The position numbers were made by a program, and so were the translations under genes. From an uncultured Alphaproteobacteria bacterium (lineage in GTDB: Bacteria; Pseudomonadota; Alphaproteobacteria; HIMB59; GCA-002718135), in assembly GCA_902623545.1 (NCBI GenBank), contig CACNUI010000001.1:23203-87202 (forward strand): 64,000 bases of DNA, written 5' to 3'. The notes under the pieces were generated by a model. It was given only the letters and a program-made list of their open reading frames with translations. It was not told the DNA's origin and searched no databases. How positions within the stretch are numbered: position 1 is the stretch's first letter; each line of letters begins with the position of its first letter. This document shows positions 37,352 to 61,933 of this stretch, piece by piece.

Positions 37352-38335
37352 TTAAGATGCATTAAGCCACTCATCAATCCATTTGTCTTTATTTTTATTA
37401 ATTTCTTTTGGATCTATTTGAATAAATTTAGGAACTTTGAGTTTATCAAATGCTTCAGGTAAATCTTTAATATTTGTTACAGGGTACATTATATTTGTCG
37501 ATGGAATTACTGATTGAAATTCTTCTGACAACATGAAATTAAGAAATTTATTTGCTAAATCTTTATTGTTTGAATTATTTAAGATCCCAGCAAATTCAAT
37601 TGTTATATAATTTCCCTCCTCAAAGGTCGTTGCAAGAATATCATATCTTTCTTCAAACATAATATGGGCTGCAGGTGATGTAGTATAACTCAAAACCATA
37701 TCTGCTTCACCAGCCATAAAAAAATTATAATATGAATCTGTCCATCCTTTGGTAACTGAGATAATTTTTTTATTTAACTTTTTCCATTCATCACTAGCTT
37801 GATCTCCATATAAAGCTTTCATCCAAGTAAGTAATCCTAATCCTGGAGTAGAAGTTCTAGGGTCTTGAATTACAATTCTAGCATTAGTAGAATTAATTAA
37901 TTCATCCATAGATTTTGGAGGCGATACTAAATTTGCTTCATTGTATACAAAGGAGAAGTATCCATAGTTATATGGAACAAATTTATTACTTTCCCAATTT
38001 AATGGTAGATTCATTAGGCTGTTTATGTTGCCCATATTATGGGTTGTAAAAAGCTGTGATTTATCTGCTAGGTCAAATAAATTCATATCGAGACCTAGAA
38101 CTATATCTGCTTTGGAGGAATTACCTTCTAAAATAACTTTATTTAATAATGTTGCTGCACTATCTACTGACACAAACTTTATATCTGTGTTATGTTTTTC
38201 TTCAAATATCTTTTCAATTATTGGTCCAGGACCCCATTCTGAAACAAAAGAGTCATAAGTATAAATAGTTAATTTATCAGCATAGATTGAGAAAGAGATA
38301 AATAAGGTAGTAAAAAAAATTAGTATTGTTTTCAT
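37352..38335 (-). CDS. thiB: Thiamine ABC substrate-binding protein ThiB
   Basis: LTIYTYDSFVSEWGPGP, DPRTSTPGLG, VLSYTTSPAAH. Confidence 0.95.
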   Translation of the reverse strand: MKTILIFFTTLFISFSIYADKLTIYTYDSFVSEWGPGPIIEKIFEEKHNTDIKFVSVDSAATLLNKVILEGNSSKADIVLGLDMNLFDLADKSQLFTTHNMGNINSLMNLPLNWESNKFVPYNYGYFSFVYNEANLVSPPKSMDELINSTNARIVIQDPRTSTPGLGLLTWMKALYGDQASDEWKKLNKKIISVTKGWTDSYYNFFMAGEADMVLSYTTSPAAHIMFEERYDILATTFEEGNYITIEFAGILNNSNNKDLANKFLNFMLSEEFQSVIPSTNIMYPVTNIKDLPEAFDKLKVPKFIQIDPKEINKNKDKWIDEWLNAS

Positions 38336-38406
38336 TTTTCCTCCGCTGGCATTATCCAGATCAGGTTAAAAGGGTATAAATCTCAGCATTTAAGCACCCC
38401 TAAATT
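38333..38406 (-). ncRNA. TPP (thi-box) riboswitch
   Basis: Minus strand: AGGGGTGC-TTAAAT-GCTGAGA-TTTAT-ACCC-TTTT-AACCTGATCTGGATAATGCCAGCG-GAGG-AAAAATG; conserved CTGAGA and ACCTGA...TAATGCCAGCG blocks immediately 5' of thiB. Confidence 0.95.
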
Positions 38407-38484
38407 AATTATAATAAATATTATTTTAAAAACAAACATAAAAGAATTGTTTTTAGCTTATTTATGAATATAACAAATTTTTCT

Positions 38485-38561
38485 CGGGGAGTAGCGCAGC
38501 CTGGTAGCGCACCTGGTTTGGGACCAGGGGGTCGAAGGTTCGAATCCTTTCTCCCCGACCA
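38485..38561 (+). tRNA. tRNA-Pro (TGG)
   Basis: Acceptor CGGGGAG/CTCCCCG, anticodon arm CCTGG-TT-TGG-GA-CCAGG, GGTTCGAATCC, CCA. Confidence 0.97.
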
Positions 38562-53106: not shown

Positions 53107-53182
53107 GCGCCCGTAGCTCAGTGGATAGAGCAACCGCCTTCTAAGCGGTAGGTCAAATGTTCGAATCATTTCGGGCGCGCCA
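53107..53182 (+). tRNA. tRNA-Arg (TCT)
   Basis: Acceptor GCGCCCG/CGGGCGC, anticodon arm ACCGC-CT-TCT-AA-GCGGT, TTCGAAT loop, CCA. Confidence 0.97.
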
Positions 53183-53202
53183 CATAAATGTAATTATTTA
53201 TT

Positions 53203-54213
53203 ATGATAAATAATATATTTGCTAAATTTTTATTAAGATTTTTTCTTCTTTTGTTTTGTTCCTTTTTTATTTTGGAAATATTTATTAGAGTTGTTGATGA
53301 AAACTGTTATTCATTTTTCCCAGTCTATATTGAAAATGAAATAGAAACATTGCCAAAAAATAAAAATTTTTGTGCGAAATATACTGGTCATCCCAAAGCA
53401 TTTTATTCAACAGATGATTATGGTTTGAGAGTAAAAAATAATAAGATTAAAAATAATCAAAACACTTATTTATTAGTTGGAGATAGTCAGGCAATGGGAT
53501 ATGGCATTAATTTTGATGATCATTTTCTTCATAAATATCTAAGTTTTAATAAGAATGCTCATTTAGAAATACTGGCTTCACCAACTTTTAAACTGCAAAG
53601 TTTACATAATTTTAAAAAAGTTAATGATGACTTTAACTTCCAAAAATATGAAAAAATATTTTTCTTTCTAAATATATGGGTAGATATTGATAGATTTGTA
53701 TTAAGTTGGGATGAAAATTGGAGAATAAAAAACAGAAAATTTGATATTGAGATTAGTAAATATTTTAGATCATACGAATATATAAAAAAAATTTTAAAAT
53801 TTTCAAAAAAAAGAAAAGGTCAACCGTATAATTTATATTTTAATTTTCTAACTGATGATGAAATAGAATATTTAATATATTCAATAGTAGATCAATATAA
53901 ATTATTTATTGATACAAATTCAATTAAACAATATGAATTTATAATATTACCACCTGCTTGGTATTTTGATAAGAACCAGTTAAGGAAATTTAATTATGGT
54001 TTTAAAAATGAAGAATTTTTAAATTTATTTAATGATTATGACTACTATTATAATAAAATGAAAAATAATTTAGAAATCCTTTCTAAAAAATTTAAAAAAG
54101 ATGAGATTGACTATATTTTAATTGATCAACTAGATAATCCAGAAACAAGTTTTCTTAAAACTGACTATCATTTAAATGAAAATGGACATGATGAAGTATT
54201 TAAAAAATTTTAG
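53203..54213 (+). CDS. Membrane-anchored SGNH/GDSL-fold protein
   Basis: N-terminal TM ending LEIFIR, YSTDDYGLR, block I LVGDSQAMG, block V DYHLNENGH. Confidence 0.8.
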   Translation: MINNIFAKFLLRFFLLLFCSFFILEIFIRVVDENCYSFFPVYIENEIETLPKNKNFCAKYTGHPKAFYSTDDYGLRVKNNKIKNNQNTYLLVGDSQAMGYGINFDDHFLHKYLSFNKNAHLEILASPTFKLQSLHNFKKVNDDFNFQKYEKIFFFLNIWVDIDRFVLSWDENWRIKNRKFDIEISKYFRSYEYIKKILKFSKKRKGQPYNLYFNFLTDDEIEYLIYSIVDQYKLFIDTNSIKQYEFIILPPAWYFDKNQLRKFNYGFKNEEFLNLFNDYDYYYNKMKNNLEILSKKFKKDEIDYILIDQLDNPETSFLKTDYHLNENGHDEVFKKF

Positions 54214-54784
54214 ATTATTATTTTTAATATTTATTGTTTCAAAAACAGTTTTTGCAAATCAAAATGATGTATATTTTATTAATTCAATGGCCAATAATTT
54301 AATTGAAATAGATCAATCTTCACTTAAAAATTATTTGGATAAGAAAAATTTAAATCTAATTAGCTATTCTGACAATATTAATTCGATTTTTGATCAGGCT
54401 GATATTTATGAAGAGATATCTCAACAAAATACAAATAAAAAAATAATCTTTGTTGATAAATATTATCTAGAATCAATATTATTTGAGGCTGATTATTTTT
54501 TATTATCTTGTGCTAGAGATCAAATAATATGCAATAAAAAAAAAAGAATTACTTATAATGAAATGTTTTATCCTTTATTAAATATTCTTCATGAAAGACT
54601 ATTAAATTTATATTTTCATAATTATAATCAAAATATACTATTAATATTTAATAATATAGATAATGACATGTTTCTTAGAAATTATTTTACAAACCATTCA
54701 TTATTATTTAAGAATATTACATACTGTATTGCAGAAACTATAAATCAATTTGAAGGTTGCATCGATGAATTTGTTAGTGAATAG
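54191..54784 (+). CDS. Secreted hypothetical protein
   Basis: Sec-type signal MKYLKNFRLLFLIFIVSKTVFA; overlaps both neighbours; 4 Cys; no family recognised; start could be 54188. Confidence 0.65.
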   Translation: MKYLKNFRLLFLIFIVSKTVFANQNDVYFINSMANNLIEIDQSSLKNYLDKKNLNLISYSDNINSIFDQADIYEEISQQNTNKKIIFVDKYYLESILFEADYFLLSCARDQIICNKKKRITYNEMFYPLLNILHERLLNLYFHNYNQNILLIFNNIDNDMFLRNYFTNHSLLFKNITYCIAETINQFEGCIDEFVSE

Positions 54785-56204
54785 ACTAAAACAATATTTT
54801 ATTTTTTTATTTTTTATATTTGTTTTACTCAATGTCAATGTTGGTAAGGCTGACTCTCATGATGATCTAACTCAAGATTTAAAGCAAGCTCTTTCAAAAG
54901 TTATTAATGAAAATTTTTCTAAAGATTTACAAAAAGCAATAGCGACATATGCAAGTGTAATATCACAAAAATTAAATGAAGATGAAAAAGAAGATGAAAA
55001 AACTCAATTACTACAATCGACAAAGGAAATACTTCGTATTTCTTCCAACGGAAATATAAATGATTTTAACCAACTTTACACTTTATTAAATAATTTAGAA
55101 AAAATTATAGATATAATTTATCCTTATATTTTAGATGAAATGAGTAAGCAAAATATTGAAAATGATCTTCAAATTAAAGCTTGGTTGGCTTTTAGTGATC
55201 TAAAAACAGGTATAGCTAATTTTGATGAATCTCAAATCAAAAATTCTCTTCAGGTCATAAGTAAAGCGTTGGTAGCTGAAAGCATAACAGAAGCTAAACA
55301 AGATGTGGCAGAAAATGAAACTGAAACGGAGAATGGACAAAATAATGGAAGTAAAATAGCTAATTATGATGTTGATAGTGAGCAAGATGTAATGGGTAAA
55401 GTTCAAAAAACAGGAGCAAAAGGCTTTTTTGAAGACGATACTCAACTTAAAAAAAATAATAAAGTTTCAACAAATAAAGTTTTGACATGTAGAGAAAGTT
55501 CAAGAGGATGCATATTTATATTAGATAAAAATACATCATTTTATTTAAAAAACGCTACAAAAATAATTATAAATTCTTACTTTGTGGACGAAGATGGTAC
55601 TCAATTCATCAAAGCTTGTCTTCTTGAAGGAGGATTTTATTTTAAGACCTTAAGAAAAACAAATTCACAAGTTACTATTAATATAAAAAATAATGGAATG
55701 GATCATTATGATGCGATAACTTCTAAAGGTTTTGATGCAAAATTTGGAGTGTTAAAAGAAAATAATATTGATATCGTCAACGCTGGTGGAACGAAAGTCT
55801 CTAAATTTAGGTTCTATTCTGAGAATGCTGCTATGAAACTAGGCAACGTTAATATTTCAAATATTGAAGATGTGAAAAACATGTTTGATGAGATGCCTCT
55901 AAATGATATTCTTCCATCTATTACAAATGCTAATGGCGACCCTTGTATTAATCCAAATTTTGGTGATATATATATTAAAGTACAACAGATAAATACGGAC
56001 ACATGCACTCATAATCATTTTCATGATGAAAATGGAGATGAACACACAGATGATTATGATGAAGGAAATTATGATTTTGGTGATAGTTGTAATGCAGATA
56101 TAGTGATTCCACCCGTAATTTGTCCTAATTATAGTTGTGTTTTAAATCCTCCATCTCCAGATGATCCTAATCCTAATCCAGGAGAAGATCATCACTCTGG
56201 ATAA
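54765..56204 (+). CDS. Secreted protein: helical N-domain, FecR-like beta domain, acidic His/Cys/Pro-rich tail
   Basis: Signal peptide; central LTCRESSRGCIFILDKNTSFYLKNATKIIINSY...LLEGGFYF resembles the FecR pattern; tail begins DTCTHNHFHDENGDEH and ends HHSG. Confidence 0.6.
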   Translation: MNLLVNRLKQYFIFLFFIFVLLNVNVGKADSHDDLTQDLKQALSKVINENFSKDLQKAIATYASVISQKLNEDEKEDEKTQLLQSTKEILRISSNGNINDFNQLYTLLNNLEKIIDIIYPYILDEMSKQNIENDLQIKAWLAFSDLKTGIANFDESQIKNSLQVISKALVAESITEAKQDVAENETETENGQNNGSKIANYDVDSEQDVMGKVQKTGAKGFFEDDTQLKKNNKVSTNKVLTCRESSRGCIFILDKNTSFYLKNATKIIINSYFVDEDGTQFIKACLLEGGFYFKTLRKTNSQVTINIKNNGMDHYDAITSKGFDAKFGVLKENNIDIVNAGGTKVSKFRFYSENAAMKLGNVNISNIEDVKNMFDEMPLNDILPSITNANGDPCINPNFGDIYIKVQQINTDTCTHNHFHDENGDEHTDDYDEGNYDFGDSCNADIVIPPVICPNYSCVLNPPSPDDPNPNPGEDHHSG

Positions 56205-56219
56205 TATAGCTAAGTTTTT

Positions 56220-56951
56220 ATGGGATCATTTAATTTCAAATCAATATTTAAAAAAATTAACAAAAAAAATAATTCCTTTAATAATCAAGAATCTGATTTT
56301 TTAAATAATTTTGGTTTAGCTGAATTTGGTAGTGCTCTAGATATGCTTGCTGCTGCTGAATTAACTACGACTAATAAATTAAAAAAAGGTTATTTAAATC
56401 ATGCTATAGATGAATTTAGGCACGCGCAATTATTTTTTAATCATGCCAAAAATTTAATTAATAAATCAAATAATAATTTAGTTAATGTTTCTGGTATCGC
56501 TGAAATTGGTGAAAGAATAAGATATCTTAATTTCATTGGAGAAAAACCAATTTACAGTGAATTAAATGAACTTGATTTTATCAATTTTGTAATGATATCT
56601 GAAGCCGCAGCAGAGAAGTATTTTACAAAACTCTCAAATAATAAAAATTTTAATTCCGAAACAAGAGCTTTATTCTCATTAATAGCTAAAGAAGAAGGCC
56701 ATCATGTAATATATGCAAAAAATGAATTGGAAAAGAGACGAAAGAATGGTGTTAAAGGTATATACAGATCCTATCTTTACATTAAATGGTTTCGATTTAA
56801 AACTGATTTACTTTCTAATACGAGAAAGATTTGGACAAAATTAGGAGACTTAATTCTTGCATTAATATTTTTCATTTTTATTCCAATAAATAAAATATTT
56901 TTTAAAAAAAATTATAAATTTAATACTTACGATCCTCGATCTATGATATGA
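56220..56951 (+). CDS. Ferritin-like di-iron carboxylate protein with C-terminal SxtJ-like membrane segment
   Basis: E35...E65xxH68...E128...E159xxH162 (AEFG, DEFRH, SEAA, EEGHH); C-terminal WTKLGDLILALIFFIFIPINKIF. Confidence 0.78.
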   Translation: MGSFNFKSIFKKINKKNNSFNNQESDFLNNFGLAEFGSALDMLAAAELTTTNKLKKGYLNHAIDEFRHAQLFFNHAKNLINKSNNNLVNVSGIAEIGERIRYLNFIGEKPIYSELNELDFINFVMISEAAAEKYFTKLSNNKNFNSETRALFSLIAKEEGHHVIYAKNELEKRRKNGVKGIYRSYLYIKWFRFKTDLLSNTRKIWTKLGDLILALIFFIFIPINKIFFKKNYKFNTYDPRSMI

Positions 56952-58693
56952 ATAAATATGTCCTCGGAATATCATGTTATTTCCATGACTCCTCTGTATC
57001 ATTAATTAAAAATGGAAAAATAATATCTGCAGTTCAAGAAGAACGTTTCACTGGAATTAAAGGTGATTCATCATTTCCTTCTAGGTCAATTGAATGGTGT
57101 TTAAATATAAATAATCTTAAAATTTCCGATATTAGTTATATTGTTTTTTATGAAAAACCTCTTAAAAAATTTCTTCGTATTTTAAATTCTTCAATAGAAT
57201 ATTTTCCTAAATCAAGAAGTTTTTTTATCTCACAAATGAAGAGATGGTTATCAGAAAAAATATGGACAAAAACAAATATTGTTAAAAAATTAAAATTTTC
57301 TGCAGATAAAATATTATTTTGTCAACATCACTTATCACATGCTTCTAGTATTTATTATACTAATAACCTAACCCATAGTTGTATCATGGTTAATGATGGT
57401 ATTGGAGAAGATCAAAGTTTTTCAATATGGTCAGGAGAAAAAAGTAAAATAAAATTATTAGATGAAATTTTATTTCCTAAATCTTTAGGTTTATTTTATT
57501 CAACAATGACGTCATTTCTTGGTCATCAAATAAATGAAGGGGAAAATAAAGTCATGAGTATGTCTGCTTATGGTAATAATTCCCTTGATAATAAATTAAA
57601 TAAGGTAATGTCAATTTCAGACAAAAAAATTTTTCATCAAAATATGGATTATTTTGAATATCAATTTAGTTTGTATAATAATTTTTCAAATAAACTCTCT
57701 AATTTATTAGGAGAACCAAGAATACCTAACTCTGAATTTTTGAATGAAGATTTTGTTCTTTCTAATGATAAATCTGAAAAATATGCAAACATCGCTTACT
57801 CTACTCAAAAAATTACAGAAAATATAATTGAACAACAATCTAATCATGCATATGAAATTTTTCCTTCAGACAATATTTGTTTATCAGGAGGCGTGCATTT
57901 AAATTGCAAAGCAAATAATGAGTCATTTAAAAATTCTAAATTTAAAAATATCTATATTAATTTTTGCCCTTCTGACTCTGGAGGTTCAATTGGTGCTTCA
58001 TTGTGGGCTTGGAATAATGTTATAGAGAAAAATGAAAATATATTTAATCAAGATGTGTATCTAGGCCCCTCTTTTGATAACGATTTTATTGAAGAGACTT
58101 TAAAAGATCTAAAAATTAATTACACTAAATTTAAGTCTACTAAAGAATTACTTTCAGATGCTGCAAATTATTTACTTAAAGATAAAATAATATGTTGGTT
58201 TCAGGGTAAATTAGAGTTTGGAAAAAGAGCTCTAGGGAATAGATCAATATTAGCAAGACCAGATAATAAAAAATTATCCCAAAAGATAAATAATGTAATT
58301 AAAAATAGAGAGCAATATCAGCCATTCGCATCATCAGTCTTGTATGAAAAGGCTGAAGAATTTTTTGAAATTGATAGCAAATTTAAAAATAGTTATAAAT
58401 ACATGAGTGTTGTTGCTTATAACAATAAGAAAAATACTAATAAAATTGAAGGTGTTTTGCATGTAGATAATTCTTGCAGAATACAACTAGTTGAAGAAAC
58501 AGATAATAGTTTATATTATAATTTGATTAAAAATTTTTTTGAGTTATCAAACATACCTCTTTTATTAAATACTTCATTAAATTTAAAGGGAGAACCAATT
58601 GTTGATAATCCAATAAAAGCAATTTCAACTTTTTTAAGATCAAATTGCGACATAATGTATATCGGTAATTTTAAAATTTATCAGAATGATTAA
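56948..58693 (+). CDS. Carbamoyltransferase, NodU/CmcH/TobZ family
   Basis: LGISCYFHDSS, QEERFT, HHLSHA, DGIGE, SLGLFY, SGGVHLNCKAN, EFGKRALGNRSILA, HVDNSCRIQ, LNTSLN..GEPIV. Confidence 0.93.
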   Translation: MNKYVLGISCYFHDSSVSLIKNGKIISAVQEERFTGIKGDSSFPSRSIEWCLNINNLKISDISYIVFYEKPLKKFLRILNSSIEYFPKSRSFFISQMKRWLSEKIWTKTNIVKKLKFSADKILFCQHHLSHASSIYYTNNLTHSCIMVNDGIGEDQSFSIWSGEKSKIKLLDEILFPKSLGLFYSTMTSFLGHQINEGENKVMSMSAYGNNSLDNKLNKVMSISDKKIFHQNMDYFEYQFSLYNNFSNKLSNLLGEPRIPNSEFLNEDFVLSNDKSEKYANIAYSTQKITENIIEQQSNHAYEIFPSDNICLSGGVHLNCKANNESFKNSKFKNIYINFCPSDSGGSIGASLWAWNNVIEKNENIFNQDVYLGPSFDNDFIEETLKDLKINYTKFKSTKELLSDAANYLLKDKIICWFQGKLEFGKRALGNRSILARPDNKKLSQKINNVIKNREQYQPFASSVLYEKAEEFFEIDSKFKNSYKYMSVVAYNNKKNTNKIEGVLHVDNSCRIQLVEETDNSLYYNLIKNFFELSNIPLLLNTSLNLKGEPIVDNPIKAISTFLRSNCDIMYIGNFKIYQND

Positions 58694-58871
58694 TTTTATA
58701 AAAAGTTTTATTTCTAGAATTGAAACATTTTTTCAACTATTTTCCTTTGTTTTTAAAAACCTCGATTTTGGAAAATTATTGTTGATCTTCGCGTTATTTA
58801 TTGCATCGATATTATTTTTGGTTTTTAAACTTTTTGAGTTTATGGCACCATTTACATATTTAGCCTTATAA
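58686..58871 (+). CDS. Small single-TM membrane protein, DUF5989/SxtK-like
   Basis: 61 aa; amphipathic N-terminus, one TM, C-terminal APFTYLAL (family consensus as I recall it: APFIYTLF); overlaps the carbamoyltransferase stop by 8 bp. Confidence 0.7.
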   Translation: MINFIKSFISRIETFFQLFSFVFKNLDFGKLLLIFALFIASILFLVFKLFEFMAPFTYLAL

Positions 58872-58927
58872 CTTAAATTAAATTTAATTATCATGATGTT
58901 TATGATATTGTAATTAAAAAAATAATA

Positions 58928-59269
58928 ATGAAACATAATTTAAATTGTCATTGTGGAGCTGTTCAAATTGAAGTTTTATCAGATTTAAAAACTATAAAAC
59001 AATGTAACTGTTCAATTTGTAAAAGAAAAAATGCTAAAATGGCAATGGTATCAAAAGAATCTTTATCAATTATTAAGGGAGTAGAATTTCTAACTTCATA
59101 CAAATTTAATACAATGATTGCTGAGCATTTTTTTTGTAAAATTTGTGGTATATATACTCATCACAATAGAAGAAGTGATCCAAATGGTGCTGCAGTAAAC
59201 ATAGGTTGCATAGATGCAATCGATCCTTTTGAATATAAAGCTGAGTTTATTGATATGAAGAATAAATAA
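58928..59269 (+). CDS. GFA/CENP-V family Zn protein
   Basis: CHCGAV, CNCSICKR, HFFCKICG, AVNIGC. Confidence 0.9.
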   Translation: MKHNLNCHCGAVQIEVLSDLKTIKQCNCSICKRKNAKMAMVSKESLSIIKGVEFLTSYKFNTMIAEHFFCKICGIYTHHNRRSDPNGAAVNIGCIDAIDPFEYKAEFIDMKNK

Positions 59270-60260: not shown

Positions 60261-61103
60261 ATGCATATTCCACCATTTGATAATAAAAATGAGCCAATTG
60301 TAGATATTGAAGACAGTAGAGTACCTCTAAATTATTTTAACATAGTAAAATTAAATAAAGATCAATCTTTTGAATATCAAACACCTGGTTATGAAACATG
60401 TATAGTGCCTGCTACTGGAACAATTAATGTAGAAATTGAAGGAATAAAAGTTGAGTCATTAGGCACTAGAACAGTTGATGTGTGGGATGGAGAACCAGAG
60501 GGTGTTTATGTTCCATCAAATACAAAAGCTCAATTTACATCTTTAGTAGATAATTCAGAAATTTTTATTGCTGGTGCAAAGTATGATAAAACTCTTGAAC
60601 CATTTGCTGTTCGAACAAATGAAATTGATTTAGTTCAGTATGGCTCTGACGATACAAAAACTCATAGAAAAATTAAACATATTTTAGGTGCTAAGCATCA
60701 TGATAAAGTTGGAAGATTGCTTTGTAACGAACTTTATACTGTAGGGAAGGGGGGTTGGTCGGGATTTCCACCTCACAAGCATGATACAGATCGTCTACCT
60801 GATGAAACTAGACATGATGAAACATATAATTATAGATTTAAACCTAATAATGGATTTGGTTTTCAGATGTTTCAGCAAGTTGATGATAAAGTTGGTAAAG
60901 CTGAACATATAATTGATGGATCAACAATAATGATTAGAACGGGTTATCATCCTTGTGTTGTGGCACCTGGGTATGAGATGTATTATTTTACAATTCTTGG
61001 AGGTTTATCTCAAAGATCTCTTGTGCAATTTTTTCAACCTGAACATGCATATCAAGTTGAAACAATTCCTGGTATTAAGGATATGATAGCTAAATATAAA
61101 TGA
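60261..61103 (+). CDS. iolB: 5-deoxy-glucuronate isomerase
   Basis: GGWSGFPPHKHD, HDETYNYRF, GYHPCV.APGY..YY; start after SD AAGGAG. Confidence 0.88.
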   Translation: MHIPPFDNKNEPIVDIEDSRVPLNYFNIVKLNKDQSFEYQTPGYETCIVPATGTINVEIEGIKVESLGTRTVDVWDGEPEGVYVPSNTKAQFTSLVDNSEIFIAGAKYDKTLEPFAVRTNEIDLVQYGSDDTKTHRKIKHILGAKHHDKVGRLLCNELYTVGKGGWSGFPPHKHDTDRLPDETRHDETYNYRFKPNNGFGFQMFQQVDDKVGKAEHIIDGSTIMIRTGYHPCVVAPGYEMYYFTILGGLSQRSLVQFFQPEHAYQVETIPGIKDMIAKYK

Positions 61104-61933
61104 CAGCGGTAAATTTAAAAACTTTACTTACTAAAGCTAATCGTAATAATTATTCAGTAGCAGGATTAGTTGTTATTAGTTGGGAGGATGCAATTGCTTA
61201 TACAGAAGCAGCGCATGAATCTAAAATTCCAATTATTTTACAAGCAGGACCTTCCTGTAGAAAATATACTCCAGTTTCTATTTTGGGAAAGATGTTTAGA
61301 CATCTTGCTGAACAAACCAAAACACCTATTTGCTGTCATTTAGACCATGGTTTTACATATGATGAATGTATTGAAGGTATAGAATCTGGTTTTACTTCAG
61401 TAATGTTTGACGGTTCGAAACTTCCATTAAGTAAAAATATCAAAATTAGTTCAAAAATATCAAATATTGCTCATAAACATAACATTTCAGTTGAAGGTGA
61501 AGTAGGGATAGTAGGTTATCATAATGGCATTAAATCTTTTGGAACAGACATTGATGAAGCAAAAAAATATAGTTTAGAAAGTGGAGTAGACGCAATGGCA
61601 ATATCGGTTGGTAATACACATTTGCAAAAATCAAAAATTGCAAAAATAGATTATAATAAGATTTTAAAAATTCAAAAAATATCTAAACTGCCTTTAGTTT
61701 TGCATGGTAGTAGTGGTATAAATTCTAGTTTGAGAAAGAAAATAGCAAGAACTACGAAAGTAGCTAAATTTAATATAGGTACTGAACTAAGAATTACGGC
61801 ATGTAAAAGTTTAAGAAAAAGTTATAATAAAAAAAAATCAAGTTTCGATAAGATAGAAATAATAAAACCATCAATAATTGAATTAAAAAAACATACTAAA
61901 AAAGTAATTAAAAATTTTGGACCAGTAAAATGA
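61100..61933 (+). CDS. Class II aldolase (IolJ/Fba-like)
   Basis: HLDHG, GFTSVMFDGS, VEGEVG, SVGNTH, LVLHGSSG, KFNIGTEL; linked to iolCB. Confidence 0.88.
   Translation: MTAVNLKTLLTKANRNNYSVAGLVVISWEDAIAYTEAAHESKIPIILQAGPSCRKYTPVSILGKMFRHLAEQTKTPICCHLDHGFTYDECIEGIESGFTSVMFDGSKLPLSKNIKISSKISNIAHKHNISVEGEVGIVGYHNGIKSFGTDIDEAKKYSLESGVDAMAISVGNTHLQKSKIAKIDYNKILKIQKISKLPLVLHGSSGINSSLRKKIARTTKVAKFNIGTELRITACKSLRKSYNKKKSSFDKIEIIKPSIIELKKHTKKVIKNFGPVK

Follow-up and report, generated by a model that had tools for sequence, protein, structure and literature searches.

Within a window of 64,000 nucleotides (the whole stretch of DNA analyzed here, from an uncultured alphaproteobacterium of the HIMB59 lineage), we found a strain-variable genomic island of six genes, p1 to p6, that begins at the 3' end of a tRNA-Arg gene and is not part of the core genome. 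By sequence comparison, the island is a divergent member of a widespread module in which a carbamoyltransferase occurs together with SxtJ, DUF5989 (SxtK) and GDSL proteins. Its carbamoyltransferase gene directly follows a gene for a ferritin-like di-iron protein, and this pair is old and cross-phylum. We tentatively propose, as a reading whose chances we put a little short of even, that the products form a relay resembling the Dlt and Pat systems, in which a carbamoyl group would pass from the carbamoyltransferase p5 to Tyr58 of the membrane microprotein p6, from there to Ser95 of the SGNH-fold protein p1, and finally to an envelope polymer.

A strain-variable six-gene island at tRNA-Arg

The AT-rich DNA of the window comes from an assembly that comprises 1.40 Mb in 55 contigs and is 88% complete. 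The tRNA, the six genes and the extent of the island are as follows, in coordinates of the window:

53107-53182, + strand: tRNA-Arg (anticodon TCT), called by ARAGORN and scoring 72.8 bits with the Rfam tRNA model
53203-54213, + strand: p1, membrane-anchored SGNH-fold protein of 336 amino acids (aa), from a fold match and conserved GDS and His residues
54176-54784, + strand: p2, predicted exported protein of 202 aa with no family match, from its hydrophobic leader and four Cys
54750-56204, + strand: p3, predicted exported, weakly FecR-like protein of 484 aa, with a TTG start and an in-frame ATG at 54765
56220-56951, + strand: p4, predicted tail-anchored ferritin-like di-iron protein of 243 aa, from its di-iron ligands and fold
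56948-58693, + strand: p5, NodU/CmcH/TobZ-type O-carbamoyltransferase of 581 aa, from Pfam matches and solved relatives
58686-58871, + strand: p6, divergent DUF5989/SxtK-type membrane microprotein of 61 aa, from profile-profile comparison
53183-58927, no strand: strain-variable island of about 5.7 kb between the tRNA-Arg and a GFA-like gene starting at 58928

The start of p1 lies 20 bp past the 3' end of the tRNA, four neighboring gene pairs overlap (p1/p2 by 38 nt, p2/p3 by 35 nt, p4/p5 by 4 nt and p5/p6 by 8 nt), and the sole intergenic gap, between p3 and p4, measures 15 nt. The same six-gene order is kept in four other single-cell genomes (L013-L016). Measured against these four orthologs, p6 is the most constrained gene of the island, with 98-100% protein identity and a ratio of nonsynonymous to synonymous substitution rates (dN/dS) of 0-0.014, followed by p4 (95-96%, dN/dS 0.055-0.085), p5 (93-95%, 0.074-0.096) and p1 (90-97%, 0.08-0.17). 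The evolution of p2 (74-82%, 0.40-0.45) is, on these values, relaxed or diversifying, and p3 is the fastest-evolving gene of the island (67-70%, 0.50-0.53). All six are genuine, closely coupled genes that evolve under purifying selection.

When the upstream gene and the tRNA were used as a query against 40 relatives, the locus was recovered at 87-96% identity in many genomes of the same genus, and the match ended at the 3' end of the tRNA in all of those relatives except G011 and G022. The DNA 3' of the tRNA was compared for 12 same-genus genomes without the island, and an empty site was found in all 12, with the tRNA-Arg followed by the GFA-like gene, iolC and iolB; the GFA-like gene lies directly 3' of the tRNA in four of them, and the other eight have an extra gene of ~650 bp in between. 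As the tRNA match stops at the 3' end and the island-free junction with the GFA-like gene recurs in 12 of 12 genomes, the island is absent there. Carriers of the island are the genome of the window, G011 (which is L013), G022 (which is L014), L015 and L016, five in all, and GC content is 0.20-0.28 within the block compared with 0.29-0.33 in its flanks. The block is therefore a strain-variable genomic island at the 3' end of the tRNA-Arg. A preliminary description of this DNA had noted six tightly coupled genes 20 bp past the tRNA-Arg and suggested testing whether the cassette varies at that tRNA; the first point is borne out by the coordinates, overlaps and kept order, and variation by the empty sites and the five carriers. 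Parts of the island were present in 20 marine or seawater metagenome runs from 11 studies, with no RNA run listed among them.

No integrase or mobility gene was found among the six products with Pfam, and a search with a 20-mer from the 3' part of the tRNA, allowing 3 mismatches, found no copy in the window. Local alignment of the tRNA to the far edge of the window's island scored 7, below the null 95th percentile of 10. The relatives L013 (12700-12725, score 14) and L014 (12700-12723, score 12) have a degenerate T-arm copy of the tRNA-Arg ~50 bp 3' of p6, with scores to be read against a null from random 220-nt windows with a 95th percentile of 10 and a maximum of 19, the stretch searched being longer than 220 nt. 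This copy looks like a relic attachment-site repeat, and the window and L015 have neither it nor the ~650-bp gene.

The missing integrase, the loss of the far-edge tRNA repeat from the window and the fast evolution of p2 and p3 would all suit a decaying, non-functional relic of an old integration that holds no working unit. This explanation is already disfavored, and we regard it as extremely improbable: five genomes have every one of the six frames intact, the dN/dS of p1, p4, p5 and p6 is far below 1 and that of p2 and p3 about 0.4-0.5, and even variants with a p4 identity of just 57-64% keep the gene order.

Pfam and NCBIfam scans of the six products found no glycosyltransferase, MBOAT, AT3, nonribosomal peptide synthetase (NRPS) or polyketide synthase (PKS) domain, in agreement with the earlier remark that the cassette holds no glycosyltransferase, MBOAT, NRPS or PKS gene. 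Nothing significant was returned by Pfam or NCBIfam for p1, p2, p3 and p6, by PHROGs for any product but p5, or by a PADLOC scan of all six proteins. A promoter scan gave 42 promoter-like sites against 52.4 expected and is uninformative in AT-rich DNA; no terminator was found 3' of p6, in a scan that is likewise uninformative in such DNA.

Three further observations concern the surroundings of the island. The ~650-bp gene, encoding ~215 aa on the opposite strand, stands before the GFA-like gene in L053 (560-1260), L054, L056-L058, L060-L062, L013, L014 and L016; it is present in 8 of the 12 empty-site genomes and in three island genomes and missing from the window, L015 and four empty-site genomes, so that its position is a second, independently variable slot. 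A class II aldolase-like gene 3' of iolB (window 61100-61933) occurs in two forms, ~64% and 94-95% identical, among relatives L053-L064, across which iolC and iolB are 92-99% identical; this pattern suggests that the aldolase-like slot underwent allele or gene replacement. Elsewhere in the window, a thiamine pyrophosphate riboswitch (38321-38411, - strand, 71.6 bits) adjoins a tRNA-Pro at 38485-38561.

The carbamoyltransferase, its di-iron neighbor and their partners

Both domains of the carbamoyltransferase family were recognized in p5 well above the Pfam cut-offs: residues 5-351 match Carbam_trans_N, a Kae1/ASKHA-like domain (4.8e-62, 210.8 bits, cut-off 24), and residues 406-577 match Carbam_trans_C, a YrdC-like domain (1.6e-58, 197.4 bits, cut-off 27). 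Full-length alignment to solved O-carbamoyltransferases gave E-values of 2.3e-62 for 7xb6 and 4e-48 to 6e-49 for NovN, GdmN and TobZ, and comparison with the PHROG 'Nol-like carbamoyltransferase' gave 5.7e-109. By family, p5 is a two-domain, soluble cytoplasmic O-carbamoyltransferase of the NodU/CmcH/TobZ type. Its candidate assignment as a NodU ortholog was rejected, the NCBIfam equivalog scoring 118.7 bits against a cut-off of 1000.

The gene directly before the carbamoyltransferase encodes p4, in which the putative di-iron ligands E35, E65xxH68, E128 and E159xxH162 are invariant across 12 of 12 diverse members. The AlphaFold2 (AF2) model of p4 (predicted local distance difference test score, pLDDT, 73.7) is a ferritin-like four-helix bundle, with a VIA Z of up to 14.9 against Dps-like, bacterioferritin, symerythrin and PaaC chains, which identifies a generic ferritin-like fold only; Foldseek returned no match at E≤0.001 (best E 0.054), so no close subfamily was assigned. 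The Pfam Rubrerythrin model scored 20.1 bits for p4 (cut-off 22.8) and was passed by 4 of 15 homologs. The family is very small, with 23 clusters in 5.8 billion; no members were found in viral contigs, and no longer fused forms were seen among 8000 candidates, which is weak evidence. Because p4 has no signal peptide and a single hydrophobic helix at 203-229, it is probably tail-anchored, with its metal domain in the cytoplasm.

This di-iron protein is directly followed by the carbamoyltransferase in all 10 genome loci, four of them from the lineage and six titled as Myxococcota, Deltaproteobacteria, 'uncultured bacterium' and Enterobacterales metagenome-assembled genomes (MAGs) with a GC content of 0.50-0.75. 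The same holds for 28 of 30 metagenome loci, the other two ending in the p4 match or within ~300 bp after it. Together the two sets give 38 of 40 loci from several phyla, among which some records are likely duplicates (L042/L043, L021/L050 and L019/L044/L045). A pair of this age and phylogenetic breadth contradicts the earlier suggestion that the cassette had newly acquired a di-iron oxidase. In one Myxococcota MAG the pair (L017:7920-9900) lies just 3' of a truncated-globin gene (Pfam Bac_globin, 1.7e-20), and neighboring open reading frames (ORFs) were judged by eye to encode a ferredoxin-reductase-like protein and an Rrf2-type regulator; these neighbors could hint at a redox or nitric oxide link for the di-iron protein.

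The C-terminal part of p4 was compared with SxtJ, for which the Pfam model (PF19588) gave no match at E≤1 in any of the six products. Whole p4 was rejected as an SxtJ relative, hhalign giving 0.6% for the whole p4 family against SxtJ-like proteins. When an SxtJ-like hidden Markov model (HMM) was run over every ORF of the 40 p4 loci and the window region, the five best matches were the tails of p4 homologs (L046 at 1.2e-4, L048 at 6.5e-4, then L047, L049 and L020, to 4.8e-3), all through the same W...helix...P segment. Pfam SxtJ matched the tails of 2 of 15 homologs below threshold (E 0.061 and 0.074) in the same register, and 11 p4 tails aligned with eight SxtJ-like proteins at 68% in hhalign (E 4.6e-5, 38 columns). 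These matches are suggestive of p4 standing in the place of SxtJ, with a tail that resembles the last membrane segment of SxtJ. If p4 does replace SxtJ, the architecture of membrane element, enzyme, microprotein and SGNH protein would be kept, with a di-iron domain replacing the first helices of SxtJ.

The microprotein p6 is hydrophobic from residue 25 to 56 and ends in P-F-T-Y-L-A-L, that is, an FxYxxL motif (F56-T-Y58-L-A-L61). P55, F56 and Y58 are invariant in the alignment of eight p6-type peptides, and the Tyr is also invariant in nine DUF5989 sequences (17 of 17 in total), where the canonical peptides end in PF[IVL]YT[LI]F, an exact FxYxxF. A profile of the eight p6-type sequences aligned with a profile of the nine Pfam-verified DUF5989 sequences at 95.5% in hhalign (E 1.4e-8, 50 columns). 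With a local DUF5989 HMM the p6 of the window scored 7.9 bits, a value reached by 1 of 200 shuffles, and its orthologs scored 9.2-15.4 bits; a six-frame search of the window's own genome for DUF5989 gave no match. On the strength of the profile comparison, p6 is a divergent DUF5989/SxtK relative. A p6-type peptide follows the enzyme in all 15 AT-rich loci that reach that far, and it is kept in lineage variants with 57-64% p4 identity.

For p1, whose family comprises 29 clusters, all metagenomic, the assignment was made at the level of the fold. Its AF2 model (pLDDT 64.9, with 107 residues below 50) had three Foldseek matches at E≤0.001, including CgnD (8a2n, 7e-5) and a GDSL protein (4rw0, 7.2e-4), and the further matches, which included acetyl-xylan esterases, PatB (8tlb) and the periplasmic domain of OafB (6se1), were nearly all SGNH/GDSL proteins. 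G93-D94-S95, which corresponds to the block I nucleophile motif, H323, which corresponds to the catalytic His of block V, and C35 and C57 are invariant in 10 of 10 aligned sequences. A p1 profile had 0 matches among sequences of the Protein Data Bank (PDB), and BLASTP of p1 against the GDSL neighbor in L008 gave an E-value of 0.10. An hhalign comparison with module-associated GDSL proteins reached 93% (E 2.9e-7), though the aligned part is short, with 58 columns around the GDS block. At fold level, as modeled, p1 is an SGNH protein, and its single N-terminal hydrophobic helix (4-33) together with the two invariant Cys suggests that the catalytic domain is periplasmic. The crocagin pathway, in which CgnD is the hydrolase, includes a carbamoyltransferase of its own, CgnI (PMC10070186); the match is treated here only as a curiosity.

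The two remaining products are predicted to be exported. For p2, with four Cys and a hydrophobic stretch at its N terminus, Pfam and NCBIfam gave nothing significant and the atlas no usable match; a counterpart in the same position in L028 is 29% identical. In p3 a signal peptide (13-34) and an N-terminal part that is acidic and helical precede a core at about 205-400 and a tail rich in His, Asp, Glu and Cys; only 23 relatives were found in 1.84 billion representatives. The p3 of the window gave no match to Pfam FecR (PF04773) at E≤1, and four of nine scanned family members (P0068, P0070, P0075 and the L028 ORF) reached 16.9-20.6 bits (E 6e-4 to 9e-3), below the cut-off of 24. The nearest named atlas clusters are FecR (0.86 and 0.85), a lead only. 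p3 can thus be called FecR-like weakly, from sub-threshold matches. Its close homologs share the His/Asp/Glu/Cys-rich tail with a 'DHHSG'-type ending. Five distant homologs (P0068, P0070, P0071, P0073 and P0075) have a shorter, Gly/Ser-rich tail closed by 'GGCG', and in these a conserved 'LIG.ALEDFSMT' motif precedes the tail; the closing Cys-Gly might signal processing or attachment.

Such low-complexity tails with conserved short ends ('GGCG' in the five distant homologs, the 'DHHSG' type in the close ones) raise the question of a protein target, in which the island would modify its own p3 or p2, with p4 and p5 hydroxylating and carbamoylating residues of the His/Asp/Cys-rich tail to give a strain-specific surface or metal-binding protein. 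Genes resembling p3, p2 and p1 are kept in diverged variants wherever upstream DNA exists (L028, L030, L035, L036 and L039), and the company of p3-like genes there is in keeping with this alternative. We consider it improbable, as p4 and p5 are cytoplasmic by prediction whereas p3 has a signal peptide, and as the non-lineage loci in which p4 and the enzyme are retained lack p3. The AT-rich variant L051, which encodes LamG and SGNH-like proteins besides p4, the carbamoyltransferase and a p6-type peptide, also points away from it: the protein in the p2/p3 place, a 595-aa membrane-anchored LamG (concanavalin-like) protein (L051:2495-4282), suits an accessory binder better than a substrate and fits a glycan-binding accessory role.

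The canonical form of the module was found in relatives of the lineage. Of 60 relatives, 25 have a carbamoyltransferase of some kind, and 13 have DUF5989 at Pfam level, each beside a carbamoyltransferase (12 adjacent, one ~2.2 kb away). In the loci inspected, the order is an SxtJ-like protein (128-146 aa), DUF5989 (49-50 aa) and the carbamoyltransferase (~610 aa), with membrane-anchored GDSL proteins after the module, two in L066 and one in L008. The L067 module is surrounded by genes for GT2, epimerase/dehydratase, HAD, FkbM methyltransferase and YfhO-like proteins, and GT2 lies near that of L065; from the three loci examined, the canonical form is an accessory module of the lineage in glycan-building neighborhoods. 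Thirteen loci from outside the lineage continue beyond the enzyme; DUF5989 comes after it in 6 of these and exceeds the Pfam cut-off in L018, L020, L042, L047 and L049, and GDSL-like neighbors occur in five loci (L020, L041, L042, L046 and L048). Two other kinds of neighbor were seen. Sulfatase-family genes stand divergently beside the p4 and enzyme pair in three loci (L021:8446-9900, L022:8544-9965 and L048:6104-7822), a hint of a sulfated or decorated glycan context. An N6_N4_Mtase DNA methylase and a restriction endonuclease of the MvaI/BcnI family are encoded ~1.2 kb past the two GDSL genes in L066 (14193-15751).

The gene neighborhoods also bear on another kind of target, a soluble metabolite that would be produced by genes elsewhere in the genome or imported from seawater and that the module, as in saxitoxin biosynthesis, would carbamoylate and perhaps oxidize. 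In favor of it, the enzymes among the solved relatives of p5 tailor antibiotics, CgnD, which p1 matches best in structure, belongs to the crocagin pathway with its own carbamoyltransferase CgnI (PMC10070186), and in the literature found SxtI, SxtJ, SxtK and SxtL are discussed only for the toxin pathway (PMC2679770, PMC2684587). Small-molecule tailoring is nevertheless very improbable in our estimate: no core biosynthetic gene (NRPS, PKS or amidinotransferase) lies in the island, of the six products three are by prediction exported or periplasmic and a further two membrane-bound, glycosyltransferase and sugar-modifying genes surround the canonical modules of relatives, and the genome is only about 1.4 Mb.

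Most of the labels given in the preliminary description hold after these comparisons. The NodU/CmcH carbamoyltransferase is confirmed by both Pfam domains, the di-iron ferritin-like membrane protein by its ligands, fold and C-terminal helix, and the secreted protein without known family by the leader, four Cys and empty searches for p2. The membrane-anchored SGNH protein was recovered at fold level, though without a Pfam match, and the 61-aa membrane peptide proved to be of DUF5989 type by profile comparison despite lacking one. For the secreted FecR-like protein, secretion agrees with the signal peptide of p3, and the FecR likeness stands weakly. The relation to the sxtI/J/K/L block was upheld by the canonical sets in relatives and the profile links of p6 and p1, and the co-occurrence suggested there as a check was found, the cassette genes traveling together in L013-L016 and in metagenome and non-lineage loci. 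As a whole, the interpretation offered there finds partial support, with hydroxylation followed by O-carbamoylation of an envelope target standing as a proposal.

A predicted p1-p6 complex and a possible carbamoyl relay

The predicted complex of p1 and p6 scored 0.67, compared with 0.17 for the best of three controls; the mark for this score is reached by 116 of 157 solved complexes and 2 of 215 mismatched pairs. Runs agreed in at least 59% of contacts, with a partner pLDDT of at least 68. In the model the membrane helices pack in parallel, and residues 50-56 of p6 contact residues 190-200 and 321 of p1. The model supports binding, and its passing score may partly reflect likeness to the described DltB-DltX-DltD complex. 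In that system DltX is a membrane microprotein in which the invariant Tyr of a C-terminal FXYXXF motif takes D-Ala from the MBOAT protein DltB and passes it to a Ser of the SGNH protein DltD, and PatA, which shares this motif, hands acetyl on to PatB (PMC12148441).

By analogy with Dlt and Pat we infer a relay for the island, of which every chemical step, the topology and the acceptor are proposals. TobZ activates carbamoyl phosphate with ATP, through carbamoyl-AMP. In the cytoplasm, p5 would do the same, with p4 as its partner at the membrane in the loading step, where the tail of p4 would act as the SxtJ-like segment. The carbamoyl group would then be loaded on Tyr58 in the FxYxxL motif of p6, as the counterpart of FXYXXF in DltX and PatA, and be handed by p6 to Ser95 of p1, the tail of p6 lying near D321 and H323 in the model; p1 would move it to a hydroxyl of an envelope or surface polymer. 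The exported proteins p2 and p3 would be fast-evolving accessories, and the FecR-like beta-sandwich core of p3 may bind or present the acceptor. For the di-iron center of p4, oxidation or hydroxylation of the acceptor and control of loading are both candidates. An envelope target is suggested by the topology, the Dlt/Pat analogy and the glycan genes that neighbor the canonical modules of relatives.

Several observations weigh against this relay. Foremost, the island encodes no MBOAT or other obvious conduit across the membrane, which leaves the loading of an outward-facing Tyr from the cytoplasm unexplained. No DUF5989 was detected after the enzyme in 7 of the 13 non-lineage loci with p4 and the carbamoyltransferase, and the p4 and enzyme pair can therefore work without the microprotein. 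In a tree of 30 carbamoyltransferases, three well-supported groups branch from an unresolved trichotomy, the branch of L051 is very long and a composition bias was flagged; the tree does not bear on whether the p4-linked enzymes form one clade. The individual assignments have their own weak points: p1 matches no Pfam GDSL model (no Pfam or NCBIfam match at E≤1), and the Asp at 321, two residues before His323, varies in its family (D, G or N); p6 has no match to Pfam DUF5989 (PF19451) at E≤1, where the cut-off is 27 bits, and the last residue of its motif is Leu, not Phe; the likeness of the p4 tail to SxtJ is modest and involves a hydrophobic helix (68%, compared with 0.6% for whole p4). The packing of two membrane helices is also easy for structure models to propose.

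The soluble nature of p5 and the missing conduit would also suit a modification at the cytoplasmic face. In this reading, p5 would carbamoylate a glycan precursor, linked to a lipid or a nucleotide, on the inner side of the membrane, p4 and p6 would do no more than hold the enzyme there or regulate it, and p1 would be an esterase that trims or edits the modification (a decarbamoylase or deacylase), the part proposed for SxtL. WapO (PA5005), a putative carbamoyltransferase of the inner core of Pseudomonas lipopolysaccharide (LPS), is cited as a putative stand-alone enzyme and gives a precedent for envelope carbamoylation (PMC8005017), SxtL is a GDSL lipase proposed as a decarbamoylase (PMC2679770), and the 7 of 13 loci in which the microprotein went undetected are in line with this reading. 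We consider this alternative unlikely, because a tether leaves three things unaccounted for: the invariant C-terminal FxY and near-zero dN/dS of p6, the recurrent linkage of DUF5989 with membrane-anchored SGNH proteins, and the predicted contact of the p6 tail with the catalytic domain of p1.

The relay through p6 and p1 can be extended, more doubtfully, to the module at large. DUF5989/SxtK peptides in general might be DltX-like Tyr shuttles for carbamoyl, loaded with the help of an SxtJ-type element, which in the island is fused to a di-iron domain for an oxidative or redox-gated step, and relieved by an SGNH protein that delivers the group to an envelope polymer. If this were true, it would define an MBOAT-independent and previously undescribed class of extracytoplasmic polymer modification and assign mechanistic roles to three proteins of the saxitoxin cluster, SxtJ, SxtK and SxtL. 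For the island itself, a real relay would extend the acyl-tyrosine shuttle principle of Dlt, Pat and Oat to carbamoyl and to systems without an MBOAT, and would mean a strain-variable surface modification in an abundant marine group, with consequences for phage-host interactions. The likely pay-off would be strain-specific surface chemistry, for example in escape from phages or grazers.

Comparison with known systems

Sets of carbamoyltransferase, SxtJ, DUF5989 and GDSL genes are widespread, and no role has been assigned to their small partners in the time since the saxitoxin cluster was reported; the roles of SxtJ and SxtK are given as unknown (PMC2679770, PMC2684587), and SxtL was put forward as a decarbamoylase (PMC2679770). 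Our searches found no literature naming DUF5989. Papers naming SxtJ and SxtK with a carbamoyltransferase concerned, judged by title, saxitoxin producers only, and among the matches listed for DltX and carbamoyl no title named a carbamoyl shuttle. No literature characterizing the cassette was found, in line with its earlier description as a candidate undescribed system. The island is a variant of a known but functionally uncharacterized kind of module, and its six genes make a compact test case with one candidate residue or residue set per step, namely Tyr58 of p6, Ser95 of p1 and the ExxH ligands of p4.

As a genetic element, the island resembles tRNA-targeted genomic islands in its insertion exactly past the 3' end of the tRNA, its empty sister sites and its low GC content, and differs from them in having no integrase or mobility gene and, in the window, no far-edge repeat. 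A tRNA-bounded hypervariable region rich in surface-polysaccharide genes has been described in Pelagibacter (bioRxiv 10.64898/2026.04.03.716430), which offers a parallel, but at another locus and in another genus.

Of its products, p4 shares the four-helix bundle and the E..ExxH..E..ExxH pattern with rubrerythrin, the N-oxygenases AurF and CmlI, acyl-ACP desaturases, PaaA/C and Dps-like proteins, and is set apart by its C-terminal membrane helix, its obligate carbamoyltransferase neighbor and its very small family. p5 belongs to the same enzyme family as WapO, NodU and NolO (of Nod factors), TobZ, NovN and GdmN, which, as far as the available parts of the sources go, are described without microprotein, SGNH or di-iron partners.

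The block sxtI-J-K-L is alike in placing a NodU-type carbamoyltransferase beside a DUF5989/SxtK-type microprotein and an SGNH/GDSL protein. The island differs from it in lacking a toxin core pathway, in its two extra exported proteins and in its carriage at a tRNA; it has no free-standing SxtJ, the SxtJ-like tail being borne by the ferritin-like di-iron protein, and its microprotein and SGNH protein are too diverged for the Pfam models. It resembles DltB-DltX-DltD and PatA-PatB in having an invariant Tyr in a C-terminal motif close to FXYXXF and a membrane-anchored SGNH protein predicted to be extracytoplasmic and to bind the microprotein, p6 being likened to DltX by motif; it has no MBOAT, would draw its carbamoyl donor from an ATP-dependent enzyme in place of an acyl thioester, and adds a di-iron protein. 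New from this analysis are the cross-phylum pair of di-iron protein and carbamoyltransferase, the SxtJ-like tail of p4 and the predicted docking of a microprotein to an SGNH protein.

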